Source: Eledone cirrhosa (lineage: Eukaryota). From it: a stretch of DNA of 64,000 bases. The translations under genes and the position numbers were made by a program. Shown here piece by piece: positions 24,646 to 35,331 of this stretch. Positions within the stretch are counted from its first letter, which is position 1; every line of letters starts with the position of its first letter. The stretch spans positions 127,038,001 through 127,102,000 of the forward strand of contig OZ024740.1 of NCBI GenBank assembly GCA_964016885.1, read 5' to 3'. The notes beneath the pieces are model-generated. The model worked only from the letters and a program-made list of their open reading frames with translations, was not told the DNA's origin and ran no database searches.

Positions 24646-24905
24646 ACTCGTTATAATGTCATAATAGTTCCTTTGTTCTTTTTCACTAATATATATATAT
24701 ATATATATGTAGATAAATCTACCAAGAGTTTACGGTAGTGTCCAATCCGTATGAAGAACTCAATGTATTCCGGATATCATGGAAAGAAGAGATGTAATGA
24801 AAAATCACTTTCGGTGAAAGATAAACGGAATACAGAGTCAAGATAAAATATTAAACAAATAATGAATAAAACAATGAAACAGTTCCTTATATTAAACAAA
24901 AAAAG

Positions 24906-25060
24906 TTCATTATTTAACGATCGTTTCTAGGATATATATGTGTTAGAATTGGCATGCATATTCAACAGATCTATGTACAAAATTATACAAAATTATACAA
25001 ACTATCAAGATTAAATATACATACCAAACACACATATATGCCGTCTTCAGAAATAATGAA
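24906..25060 (-). ncRNA. Hammerhead ribozyme with ~115-nt stem II (sense copy of PLE-4)
   Basis: Reverse complement of 34930-35084. Confidence 0.7.
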
Positions 25061-25339
25061 ATATATTTATTGATAATAACAACAATTCAAAATTTCAGGT
25101 CCATTTGGGAACGGAGTTCAAAATTGACCAATGAAAATACAAAAAGTTTTATGCAGTTTGGTGTGTGTATATACATGTAACTAACCCCGTACAGATATTT
25201 ATACAAAGATATATGCCCAACATGCATACGCATGCCAAAAAGATGTATGCAAATACGAAAAATTCAAGGCTAATGTCTCTGTAAGTTTATAATCCACAGA
25301 TAAAATGCGTATAGACACATAAATATGAAATAAGTGTAT

Positions 25340-27660
25340 ACACATATTCTCATACTCACACACATCCGTACACTCACACACACGCGCGCGTATATGCATA
25401 AACATACACATAATTACGAACATACATACACACACACACACCCACACACATATATATGTGGATATAATATTATCATAAGCACATGGATATTAATTCACTC
25501 ACATAAACACTGCCACACACATTTAGATCAAGATACAGAAATTAGGTGGGAGGGGGGGAGAGGTCAGTATTCAACGGATTGGGCAGACTGCTTATTTATA
25601 GATGTATCTATAAACTTAGAAATAAAAAGAAAAGAAAAGAGAAAGAAAAAAGAAAAAAGAAATATATCAAGAAAATATATATATATATATATATATATAC
25701 ATATATATATATATATATATATATATATATATATATATATATATATATACATATATATATATATATATATATATATATATATATATATATATATATATAT
25801 ATATACACACACATCTACACATACAACACTCACACACACACATATATAAATATATACATATATATATATATACACACATATACACACCTACACATATATA
25901 TATATACACATATATATACACACATATATACACATATATACACACAACCATATATAGACACACATATATATATACACATACACGCACATATACATACACA
26001 TACATACTTATATACATACAGACATACACATACATACATATATATACACACATATACATACAGACATACATACATACATACACACATATACACATACATA
26101 CACACACATACATACTCATACATAGACAGAATATATTCACCCACACATACGTACTTATATATACGCATATGTACAAATACTTACGCATCCATATATCGGT
26201 ATATACATACAAACACCACTACACTCTCACACAACTCAGACATACAAAGAAAAAGGTATATACATATACACATATACACATACAAATAGAGATACATATA
26301 CATATATATATATATATATATACACATATATATATATATACATACACATATACACATATATATACATACACATACATACATGTACACACACATACACATA
26401 CATACATACACACATACACACATACATATATAGTCACACACACACACACACCTACACAAACATACACATACGCATATATAAAGATATATATACACACACA
26501 CACATACACACACACACATATATATAAAATAAACATATATATATATATATATATATACATATATATATATACACATATACATACACATATATGTACATAC
26601 ATACACATACATGCATACATATACACACCTATATATATATATATATACACACATACACACATACATACATACACACACACATACATACACACACATACAT
26701 ACTCATACATAGATATAGATATATATTCATACACACATACGCACTTACATATACGCATATATACAAATACATACGCATCCATATATGCGTATATACATAC
26801 AAACACTACTACACTCTCACACAACTCAGACATACAAAGAAAAAGGTATATACATATACATATATAGACACATTAAAAGAGATACATATACACATATATA
26901 TATATATATATACACATACATTTATATATATACCCACACACACATACAACCATAAACACACATACAAACACATACATACACACATATATACATATATATA
27001 CACACACACAAAAACACACATACACATATATATTTTTTTACATATATATATACATATATATACACATATATATACACATACACACCTTCACATATATACA
27101 TATACACATAAGTTATATTATAATAATAAATATTACAATAATAAATAATATATATATATACACATACGAATATATATATATACACACATAGATATACATA
27201 TATATATATACACACACACACACACACACTCACATATATATGTGCGCACACGTACATATATACACATACACACATATACACATAAACATATACATGTGCA
27301 TACATGTACATACACACATATACCCACATAGATACGAAGATAGACATATATATAGAGAGACATATATATACACATACACATATATACATACACATACATA
27401 CACACATATACATATATACATACACACACGCATACACGCCCACACACATATACACATATACACATATATATATATATATATACACATATATATACACATG
27501 CATATATACACACATATATATATACATATATATATATACACACAATCATGCATTCTTATTTGCATGCGCATATATGTATTTTTATACTCAGATATAAACA
27601 CCCAAACATATATACACCTACCTACATATATATTCATACATACACGCTTACAAACACAGA
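25340..27660. repeat. Degenerate (CA/TA) cryptic microsatellite inside the PLE-4 3' region, with an internal ~190-bp duplication (26113-26300 vs 26701-26890)
   Basis: Direct sequence; mirrored at 32400-34650. Confidence 0.85.
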
Positions 27661-31322: not shown

Positions 31323-34300
31323 TAACATTATTTTAGAAATTAATATATAATTTAATTTAAATGTTAGTTAACCTATAAATTTAATTTAATTAAAATTCTA
31401 CTACAGATGAGAATATAAAATATTGTGTAATCATAAATTGTGAAAAACCTTTAAATATTACTAATATATACTTAGAAATTTAATTTATAGATTAATTTTA
31501 ATTTATTTAACCCTTTATTAAAATTCCTTTACAGATAAAATATAACAAAATATCGTGTATCCAATGACAGAGAAATAATTTTTAGTATTATAGACCTAAT
31601 TAATATACATTTTAGAAATATATTTATAATTTGGTTTTAAATTTAGTCAACCTAAAAATTTAATTTAATTGGCTTAAAATTAGTATCCTAATACAGACGG
31701 ATTGCAGAGTGTCATGTAATCATAGAATGGGATGTGTCTTGGATGTATACCTAGTTAATATATTCTTTGCAATTTTTGAAAAAATATGTATATGTATGTA
31801 TGTATATGTATGTGTATGTATGTATGTATATGTGTATATATATATATATATATGTGTGTGTATGTATATGTATATGTATATGTATTAATTTTGATTTCTA
31901 TTTGCATATAATTATATTCTGCTATTGATAAAATACAATATCTGTTTTATTTATTATATATCTAATTAACATATACTATAGAAATTAATATATAATTTTT
32001 AATTTAGTTAACCTATAATTTATATTGTTTTTTCCCTATTACTAAATTCATTTCCTAATATTGATACCATAACGTTAATAACTTTAATTTAGTTATACTA
32101 TAATTAATACTCTACTACTATTTAACTTCAAAATTCTGCTTCAAATATTATAAACCTAACTAATTTACACCTTAGAAATCAATATGTTAACTATCTTTAG
32201 TTTAGTTAACATATAATTAATGGTATACTTATTTTGAAATGCATAATTTTGCCTTATTTCTTGCATTTCCTAACACTGAAACTATGTAAAAACATATATT
32301 GAGATCCAAATACAGATTAATATTCTATGTTTCTTGAAACATATATTTACTATAATCCCCTTCTCCACCCCCCACCCCCTTTCCCCCATACTATTATCAT
32401 CTGTGTTTGTAAGCGTGTATGTATGAATATATATGTAGGTAGGTGTATATATGTTTGGGTGTTTATATCTGAGTATAAAAATACATATATGCGCATGCAA
32501 ATAAGAATGCATGATTGTGTGTATATATATATATGTATATATATATGTGTGTATATATGCATGTGTATATATATGTGTATATATATATATATATATATGT
32601 GTATATGTGTATATGTGTGTGGGCGTGTATGCGTGTGTGTATGTATATATGTATATGTGTGTATGTATGTGTATGTATATATGTGTATGTGTATATATAT
32701 GTCTCTCTATATATATGTCTATCTTCGTATCTATGTGGGTATATGTGTGTATGTACATGTATGCACATGTATATGTTTATGTGTATATGTGTGTATGTGT
32801 ATATATGTACGTGTGCGCACATATATATGTGAGTGTGTGTGTGTGTGTGTGTATATATATATATGTATATCTATGTGTGTATATATATATATTCGTATGT
32901 GTATATATATATATTATTTATTATTGTAATATTTATTATTATAATATAACTTATGTGTATATGTATATATGTGAAGGTGTGTATGTGTATATATATGTGT
33001 ATATATATGTATATATATATGTAAAAAAATATATATGTGTATGTGTGTTTTTGTGTGTGTGTATATATATGTATATATGTGTGTATGTATGTGTTTGTAT
33101 GTGTGTTTATGGTTGTATGTGTGTGTGGGTATATATATAAATGTATGTGTATATATATATATATATATATGTGTATATGTATCTCTTTTAATGTGTCTAT
33201 ATATGTATATGTATATACCTTTTTCTTTGTATGTCTGAGTTGTGTGAGAGTGTAGTAGTGTTTGTATGTATATACGCATATATGGATGCGTATGTATTTG
33301 TATATATGCGTATATGTAAGTGCGTATGTGTGTATGAATATATATCTATATCTATGTATGAGTATGTATGTGTGTGTATGTATGTGTGTGTGTATGTATG
33401 TATGTGTGTATGTGTGTATATATATATATATAGGTGTGTATATGTATGCATGTATGTGTATGTATGTACATATATGTGTATGTATATGTGTATATATATA
33501 TATGTATATATATATATATATATATATGTTTATTTTATATATATGTGTGTGTGTGTATGTGTGTGTATATATATCTTTATATATGTGTATGTGTATGTTT
33601 GTGTAGGTGTGTGTGTGTGTGTGACTATATATGTATGTGTGTATGTGTGTATGTATGTATGTGTATGTGTGTGTACATGTATGTATGTGTATGTATATAT
33701 ATGTGTATATGTGTATGTATATATATATATATGTGTATATATATATATATATATGTATATGTATCTCTATTTGTATGTGTATATGTGTATATGTATATAC
33801 CTTTTTCTTTGTATGTCTGAGTTGTGTGAGAGTGTAGTGGTGTTTGTATGTATATACCGATATATGGATGCGTAAGTATTTGTACATATGCGTATATATA
33901 AGTACGTATGTGTGGGTGAATATATTCTATGTCTATGTATGAGTATGTATGTGTGTGTATGTATGTGTATATGTGTGTATGTATGTATGTATGTATGTCT
34001 GTATGTATATGTGTGTATATATATGTATGTATGTGTATGTCTGTATGTATATAAGTATGTATGTGTATGTATATGTGCGTGTATGTGTATATATATATGT
34101 GTGTCTATATATGGTTGTGTGTATATATGTGTATATATGTGTGTATATATATGTGTATATATATATATGTGTAGGTGTGTATATGTGTGTATATATATAT
34201 ATATGTATATATTTATATATGTGTGTGTGTGAGTGTTGTATGTGTAGATGTGTGTGTATATATATATATATATATATATATATATATGTATGTATATATA

Positions 34301-34929
34301 TATATATATATATATATTTTCTTGATATATTTCTTTTTTCTTTTTTCTTTCTCTTTTCTTTTCTTTTTATTTCTAAGTTTATAGATACATCTATAAATAA
34401 GCAGTCTGCCCAATCCGTTGAATACTGACCTCTCCCCCCTCCCACCTAATTTCTGTATCTTGATCTAAATGTGTGTGGCAGTGTTTATGTGAGTGAATTA
34501 ATATCCATGTGCTTATGATAATATTATATCCACATATATATGTGTGTGGGGTGTGTGTGTGTATGTATGTTCGTAATTATGTGTATGTTTATGCATATAC
34601 GCGCGCGTGTGTGTGAGTGTACGGATGTGTGTGAGTATGAGAATATGTGTATACACTTATTTCATATTTATGTGTCTATACGCATTTTATCTGTGGATTA
34701 TAAACTTACAGAGACATTAGCCTTGAATTTTTCGTATTTGCATACATCTTTTTGGCATGCGTAAGCATGTTGGGCATATATCTTTGTATAAATATCTGTA
34801 CGGGGTTAGTTACATGTATATACACACACCAAACTGCATAAAACTTTTTGTATTTTCATTGGTCAATTTTGAACTCCGTTCCCAAACGGACCTGAAATTT
34901 TGAATTGTTGTTATTATCAATAAATATAT

Positions 34930-35084
34930 TTCATTATTTCTGAAGACGGCATATATGTGTGTTTGGTATGTATATTTAATCTTGATAGTTTGTATAACTT
35001 TGTATAATTTTGTACATAGATCTGTTGAATATGCATGCCAATTCTAACACATATATATCCTAGAAACGATCGTTAAATAATGAA
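34930..35084 (+). ncRNA. Hammerhead ribozyme with ~115-nt stem II
   Basis: TTCATTATTT-[CTGAAGA 34940-34946]-long hairpin-[GAAA 35063-35066]-CGATCG-TT^AAATAATGAA. Stem I is 10 bp and stem III is the palindrome ACGATCGT. Confidence 0.72.
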
Positions 35085-35331
35085 CTTTTTTTGTTTAATA
35101 TAAGGAACTGTTTCATTGTTTTATTCATTATTTGTTTAATATTTTATATATATATATATATATATATATACACATGCATATATATATATACACACATGCA
35201 CACATACACACATACACGCACACACACACATATATATATATATGCAAATGGAATCATCCCGTCGGATAAGACGACGACTGTTCCAGTTGATTCTATTAAC
35301 CGAACAGGCTACTGGTGAAATCAATGTGCCA

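Follow-up and report, generated by a model that had tools for sequence, protein, structure and literature searches.

A 10.3-kb Penelope palindrome in Eledone cirrhosa with a repeat-rich 3′ untranslated region, probably formed by paired priming at a (TA)n target

Penelope-like elements (PLEs) are generally drawn with an inverted, 5′-truncated partner copy and a one-sided tail (PMC8557442), and the origin of these tails and inverted ends is an open question in the mechanism literature, as far as its available portions go. In published figures the tail lies "often only at one end" (PMC8557442, PMC3846280); the available portions of these accounts offer neither a count nor an explanation by paired priming. 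Our literature search, which had most subscription papers outside its reach, returned no paper deriving inverted PLE insertions from paired priming. In vitro, the anole Penelope protein cuts and extends both strands, uses two start sites that bound the tail, accepts uncleaved RNA and is predicted to form a dimer (PMC11167929). Here we describe a 10.3-kb palindrome in a 64,000-nucleotide stretch of the Eledone cirrhosa genome (GCA_964016885.1, contig OZ024740.1, positions 127,038,001 to 127,102,000 of the forward strand), called the window below. The palindrome belongs to what appears to be a young, endonuclease-containing (EN+) Penelope family of the Hydra type, an assignment made by motifs rather than by a tree. 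It is probably a single insertion for which the two ends of a cut (TA)n target served as primers of reverse transcription, each starting from a different tail boundary; the template would have been one and the same uncut transcript, or two transcripts of a single source copy. The observed basis is an intrinsic 3′ untranslated region (UTR), (TA)n ends, one tail per pair, a tail placed independently of arm length, a haplotype shared by both arms and a fixed stop base. In at least three to five families, fresh insertions numbering in the thousands yield countable rules that connect the in vitro finding of 2024 with genomic insertions and make the open insertion mechanism testable; intact copies for work in vitro exist as well.

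An earlier note on this DNA had described arms of 4337 and 4260 bp around the reverse transcriptase (RT), and about 3.7 kb between the stop codon and a hammerhead. Both descriptions hold. On alignment, the left arm (24843-29179, 4337 bp) and the right arm (30888-35147, 4260 bp) share 4220 matches, with 11 substitutions and 15 indels, the largest of which measure 68, 25 and 13 nt. Between the stop codon (28744) and the hammerhead-like motif (25060-24906, minus strand) lie 3684 nt. The RT core sits in the palindrome spacer, with its YRDD motif at 30140-30151, and a degenerate array of 2-10-nt units, detected by Tandem Repeats Finder (TRF) at 25675-27544, is mirrored at 32518-34317. The bounds given earlier (24843..35147) are correct for the arms but not for the insertion, which begins at 24709: a 134-nt tail (24709-24842), overlooked at the time, lies outside the left arm and is unmirrored on the right. 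(TA)n borders both outer ends. Rather than long pseudo-long terminal repeats (pLTRs), the arms are two 5′-truncated copies placed back to back, of 6.0 kb (left) and 4.26 kb (right). About 100 N-terminal codons are absent, and a private 1-nt frameshift lies near 28898 in the left endonuclease (EN) domain; this copy is unable to encode the whole protein. The arms diverge by 0.26%, corresponding to an age of about 0.4 million years if the borrowed octopus substitution rate (PMC13282606) holds, a rate that may not apply to this genome.

One tail per inverted pair was found to be the rule in samples composed of best matches or of loci from the first ~190 Mb of contig C1. Exactly one tail was present in 29 of 31 outward-facing pairs, the other two comprising one pair without a tail and one with an end outside the retrieved DNA. 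In a larger, overlapping set the figure was 40 of 44, and three exceptions vanished with longer flanking sequence; nine further pairs were all one-tailed, giving 52 of 53 long inverted pairs overall. Independent choice of start site would make only half of the pairs one-tailed. The tail was on the longer arm in 19 cases, on the shorter in 18 and unclear in 3. Of the 100 tail junctions that come first on contig C1, all of them retrieved, 40 tail arms covered the full terminal 600 nt, 40 lay in short palindromes and 20 were of other kinds; none of the 40 short-palindrome partners carried a tail, one being unreadable. In a genome sample, 78 of 98 readable tails finished in ATATATAT and 7 continued into the next unit. 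The same two types of end, tailed and tailless, are seen in families B and C and in PLE-5, a second PLE of the window.

The two arms of a pair share a haplotype, pointing to one template source. In 31 long pairs, arm divergence was 0.33% within and 1.58% between pairs; in 26 short pairs, the corresponding values were 0.17% and 2.9%, with identical arms in 20 of 26 against 7%. Ten of the 11 differences tested between the window arms were private to one arm (6 left, 4 right; the last was unreadable), so both arms began alike. An origin of the arms from different source copies is ruled out by the shared haplotype and the private differences. At 8 of 16 long junctions the arms overlap by 2-4 nt, compared with ~19% expected; these 16 were the junctions anchored out of 20, and some apparent inserts may be nearby single-nucleotide polymorphisms.

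About 40% of tail ends lie in short palindromes whose arms mostly end at one base. Of the short arms, 30 finish exactly 7 nt ahead of the ribozyme core, none at 8, 27 at 0-6 and few beyond. Roughly a thousand of these ~430-bp palindromes, built of two ribozyme ends plus one tail and easily mistaken for miniature inverted-repeat transposable elements, were observed (first 70 Mb of contig C1, for example L201-L219, and genome-wide). Genome-wide, 1694 strand-views reach the stop base beside an inverted core, and 372 strand-views continue with C where the template has G. Of the first 100 extra-C junctions, read by eye, ~47 are unexplained by the partner arm, and four loci have the extra C on both arms. 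A looser pattern retrieved 3258 head-to-head cores, against 142 in the control, and revealed other families. The strand switch at 34932/34933 is also present in independent Illumina reads (4 reads with 3 starts, in 1 of 4 runs), and 42 read matches end at 34932/34933 in another run. A single non-autonomous family copied whole was considered and ruled out, as junctions and haplotypes differ, and the short palindromes are thus separate events. Families B (2405 exact core copies) and C form the same one-tailed mini-palindromes (L281-L299, L341-L370), and in family B the end of a GIY-YIG-like open reading frame (ORF) was observed 398 nt upstream.

The 3′ end carries a putative type I hammerhead for which self-cleavage is predicted. 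Its mirror copy folds far better than shuffled sequences (z = -4.87), and the core is present in 221 of 226 views. An Rfam scan of the window gave 0 matches at the gathering score, so that motif and fold, instead of membership in a known family, support the assignment. The core, the short stem III and the cut base agree with the Hydra table in PMC8557442, where the 3′ hammerhead often has CTGAAGA plus an extra base and a T at the cut site. Stem II (~115 nt) is mismatched at its base, and the family is too young for a covariation signal. Reads of runs X17-X19 over window 34962-35047 contain a variant without 84-90 nt of stem II, and in other reads the cut-site base varies between T and A, A being common. 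Arm ends show no pile-up at the predicted cut site, 130 nt downstream of the stop base; cDNAs cross it, and the templates were therefore likely uncut.

With regard to the palindromes themselves, the main competitor is fold-back self-priming, in which one strand (cDNA or antisense RNA) folds on itself and is copied back into an inverted arm. It was proposed for rotifer Penelope elements (PMC3846280), accounts for the shared haplotypes and is compatible with some short junctions (AATAAT joined to TTCTG) that fit a 3-nt loop. However, a fold-back copy cannot hold sequence absent from its longer template, and in 18 of 37 pairs it is the shorter arm that bears the tail, so that a single fold-back cannot produce the pairs. 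Loop-free perfect palindromes are moreover common, and some junctions have the extra C on both arms. The rules counted above (a single tail per pair, placed without regard to arm length, a common template and a fixed stop) argue against fold-back, which we regard as very unlikely; it is largely refuted and survives only if tails are added or removed after synthesis. That the inverted arm is an assembly artefact derived from fold-back reads, or a later local duplication, is extremely improbable. The centre junction of the window palindrome was spanned by no read or contig in the four sequencing runs examined, a point in favour of an artefact, but both window arms carry private changes, the asymmetric tail recurs in all but one of the 53 long pairs and in other families, and the short-palindrome joint is present in independent short reads.

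Paired priming could also be right while the fixed stop reflects an RNA cut or an RT pause and the extra C a terminal-transferase activity, a combination that we judge rather unlikely. The stop base follows UUC, which fits the NUH rule, and in two families it coincides with the beginning of stem I; the main family has no TATA box at -30, just an initiator-like TCA+1TT, and long templates do not begin at the stop base. Against this, none of the hammerhead cores is positioned for a cut at that base, stops do not pile up at the predicted cut site, and family B stops at CA+1 with TATAAATA, a TATA box, at -29. An A after C with TATAAATA 29 nt upstream is the classic arrangement of a polymerase II start. 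Copying of the cap G is, furthermore, documented for full-length L1 and SVA (PMC2912911). Cleavage at the stop base by an HDV-like (hepatitis delta virus) or shifted hammerhead was considered separately and dropped, as no suitable core was found by eye. The stop base is likely a capped transcription start.

Several points weigh against paired priming from a capped start. Pair L068 has no tail at either end; single copies, ~9 of 33 loci picked by a cargo island (see below), account for roughly one in four long insertions; the shared haplotypes could owe something to conversion between arms; one RNA and two RNAs from one source are indistinguishable; and the samples were composed as stated above. 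As to the stop base, we infer both the start site and the cap. Among the first 100 extra-C junctions, ~38 show a single C:G between two full arms and are ambiguous, since the partner arm could be 2 nt longer, and 15 share the C with the partner's core. The main family's missing TATA box counts here as well, and four partial upstream units were seen, none beginning at the stop base, which leaves the origin of long templates unexplained.

In the paired-priming scheme, the element's protein would cut both strands of the (TA)n target, and each break end would take one of the two start sites that bound the 134-nt tail, both cDNAs copying the same stretch. For long arms, the cDNAs would stop at random, long templates giving palindromes like that of the window; short palindromes would come from priming close to the 5′ end of the RNA, where the cDNAs may run out of template, likely at a capped start immediately ahead of the ribozyme core, and gain the extra C. 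Their 3′ ends would then be joined by a 0-4-nt overlap or by filler, yielding head-to-head arms. The repeat-rich cargo would be a passenger that slippage and internal duplication have enlarged, and a pair of long cDNAs would double it. Anolis Poseidon PAc (PMC11167929) resembles this scheme in its two start sites at the tail bounds, the cutting and extension of both strands, an AT-rich target and the use of uncleaved RNA. The available part of that account does not tie these features to inverted insertions and gives no strand difference in start site, whereas here the two ends nearly always take different sites and short copies have a fixed stop base.

In L1 twin priming (PMC2912911), as described in the portion available, both target ends likewise prime on one RNA, joining uses microhomology and full-length copies bear a copied cap G. 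There, however, the second primer anneals far inside the RNA, whereas the two starts of the element lie 134 nt apart at the 3′ end, so that one stretch is copied by both cDNAs and the product is a true palindrome. An inverted part that does not duplicate the 3′ end, as in L1-type twin priming, is not what we see, as both arms hold the same 3′ end. The element works like L1 twin priming, yet is distinct. Penelope elements of Adineta vaga (PMC3846280) share head-to-head inverted repeats, a tail on one inverted pLTR, and TATA and initiator-like motifs in the pLTR, and Pen1 has a 0.9-1.5-kb spacer before the pLTR. In that account they are low in copy number with spacers that differ between copies, whereas the UTR here is common to the whole family; the explanation given there, self-priming on an antisense template, is contradicted here by the count of tails against arm length.

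A broader proposal is offered tentatively, at somewhat less than even chance: EN+ Penelope elements may integrate by obligate double priming, with two RT sites on one capped, uncut transcript, one per break end and tail boundary. Priming close to the RNA 5′ end would then leave thousands of short "strong-stop" palindromes that map the start and cap, and long copies and tandems would need a retrovirus-like jump of the cDNA, from the RNA 5′ end to the 3′ end where the sequence is repeated. If true, obligate double priming would bring tails, inverted pLTRs and tandems into one scheme readable from genome sequence alone.

The microsatellite-like cargo between ORF and ribozyme is the intrinsic 3′ UTR of the family, part of every long copy and no local insertion. 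Among the 63 arms holding both the stop codon and the 3′ end, 58 had a UTR of 2577-4707 nt (median 3760); the repeat-rich block measured 1361-3101 nt (median 2144, n = 56). This family-wide UTR speaks against a local insertion or expansion, the outcome that would have undone the earlier note's view of a travelling cargo, and a check by cargo island upheld that view. All 33 loci chosen in genome order by such an island carry the family's ribozyme end, and none of these islands lies outside an element; ORF sequence is present in 27, the remaining 6 being truncated within the cargo. By eye, ~23 of these loci are inverted and ~9 single, and 1 was not reached. Self-alignment shows that the first kilobase of the UTR consists of 69-79% repeats starting in the last ORF codons, and the repeat block has a ~590-bp internal duplication, which together indicate that the cargo grew in place. 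An extra ~400 bp of cargo was observed in two units of one tandem array.

Repeats between ORF and ribozyme had also been noted in PLE-2 and PLE-5, correctly: a TG run of 24-146 nt occurs in 17 of 18 scored PLE-5 ends, and the cryptic repeat of PLE-2 is common to 4 other loci inspected (of 19 retrieved). The trait is not universal among PLEs, since in family B, a fourth hammerhead family, the one copy read has a UTR of 398 nt that lacks a microsatellite. The idea that PLEs disperse and duplicate microsatellite-like DNA stood as regards dispersal, with doubling in long palindromes, but not as the main cause of the genome's simple-repeat load. Family cargo amounts to 3-6 Mb (1,500-2,800 arms x 2.1 kb, of which we infer the upper arm number), or 0.1-0.2% of 3.0 Gb, and to ~2-4% of the simple-repeat load, taking a load of 5.2% measured on this window alone. 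It is accordingly unlikely that elements capture and spread microsatellite DNA on a scale explaining that load, even though UTR repeats occur in three of the four families examined, young copies number in the thousands and penaeid shrimp offer a precedent (PMC7878876). The cargo is not reached by about 60% of tail arms, and capture of host repeats is unsupported by the islands, all of which lay within elements in the loci picked. Penelope copies of penaeid shrimp are reported to move simple sequence repeats which, as here, travel with young copies and then change length (PMC7878876). The available part of that account is without structure or mechanism, whereas here the repeat block is a fixed 2-kb part of the UTR, doubled by inversion. 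The cargo is thus a modest, measurable route for the spread of microsatellite-like DNA and long palindromes.

The full unit is ~6635 nt long, and intact ORFs of 814 and 813 aa are found at loci L072 and L082. Over 30888-31330, the ORF end, the best 40 of 1496 first-look candidates are 100% identical. Exact patterns counted genome-wide gave 6745 ribozyme cores, 3884 end/tail junctions and 960 cargo-island copies, with 0 for each in the reversed control. Whole units that are nearly identical also form tandem arrays, of up to four or more units, with an inverted arm as a cap (L194-L196, at 126.84-126.86 Mb of contig C1; L373-L374; L371/L271/L181).

RT and, C-terminally, a GIY-YIG domain are encoded in a single ORF, with YRDD and SYIG motifs (123 homologues). 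Pfam returned no family for the RT part of the protein, and GIY-YIG (PF01541) scored E = 0.0062, short of the cut-off. Together with a tail at one end of tandem or inverted insertions, this ORF organisation is that of EN+ PLEs. The Hydra clade (PMC8557442) shares with the element RW(R/K) (here RWR; RWK in 6 of 8 homologues shown), DKT, the CxCX5C linker (CNCRNKANC), CxxC (CRLC..E) and CxH (LLNK..CNH) around EN and its conserved E and N, the C-terminal GIY-YIG domain and the (TA)n target. The EN of the Hydra clade is described as lacking the CCHH motif; in the element's protein, two Cys precede SYIG and are not conserved across the homologues, in a comparison restricted to the element's own homologues. 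The clade's shortness (<3 kb, a descriptive trait) is not shared: the families listed in PMC8557442 span 1.1-3.0 kb (Hydra-1_Obim, 2507 bp), so that the ~6.6-kb unit, with its 3.8-kb UTR, is more than twice as long as any of them. The tail, stated there as 30-40 bp, is 134 nt in the element, and stem II measures ~115 nt. The family is a new, unusually long variant within a known clade.

Table 1. Features of the palindromic insertion, in window coordinates.
Feature	Position	Strand	Basis
(TA)n target, left side	24689..24708	.	sequence
Penelope tail of 134 nt, the start of the following tandem unit, this end only	24709..24842	-	end/tail junction comparison
Long arm, 5′-truncated copy of the 6.6-kb unit	24843..30877	-	alignments
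Left-arm hammerhead-like motif with 10-bp stem I, core CTGAAGA, stem II of ~115 nt, short palindromic stem III and T at the cut site	24906..25060	-	motif and fold of mirror copy
Stop base of the family's short copies, likely transcription start	25057..25057	-	short-arm ends
Repeat-rich (TA/CA/TACA) block of 3′ UTR with unique islands and ~590-bp internal duplication	25330..27545	-	TRF, arm scoring
AT-rich part of 3′ UTR, degenerate repeats (69-79%) beginning in last ORF codons	27546..28743	-	self-alignment
ORF remnant: RT core, linker, GIY-YIG domain; N-terminus missing	28744..30877	-	ORF and alignment
Head-to-head junction: 10-bp unit x3, 2-bp overlap with right arm	30860..30889	.	TRF, arm comparison
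Short arm, 5′-truncated copy, CxC linker to tailless end	30888..35147	+	alignment
GIY-YIG endonuclease domain and stop codon, right arm	30888..31322	+	Pfam PF01541 E = 0.0062 (below cut-off), alignment
Hammerhead-like motif, right arm; stop base 34933	34930..35084	+	motif, fold, reads
(TA)n target, right side, no tail	35145..35190	.	TRF, alignment

Further mobile elements were observed in the window. PLE-5 (35868-39172; 1304 first-look candidates) forms a second palindrome with arms 96% alike, a tail on the right and (TA)n on the left, and its related protein has 40% identity. PLE-2 (2240-3924; 1447 candidates) is a 5′-truncated copy whose hammerhead-like end is broken by a ~190-bp interspersed repeat at 2480-2666. 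This repeat, presumably like a short interspersed element (SINE), has at least six copies that are 79-95% alike, at 1073, 2480, 45113, 51716, 54357 and 62870. A third palindrome (22635-24692; 371-bp arms, 98%) adjoins the (TA)n at the left end of the main insertion and has a hammerhead-like motif near 24600-24650, seen by eye. The short palindrome at 1614-2145 has a one-sided extension, and copies of its sequence also turn up in TA tracts next to other families (L281, L295, L317), which indicates that several families pile into the same (TA)n. A Tc1/mariner-type transposase (Pfam HTH_Tnp_Tc3_2, E = 6.5e-19) lies between 215-bp inverted repeats at 4411-5790. Broken ORFs with the RT and endonuclease motifs of non-LTR retrotransposons were recognised by eye at 7404-10493, 14949-17422, 17770-20612 and 55273-58912.

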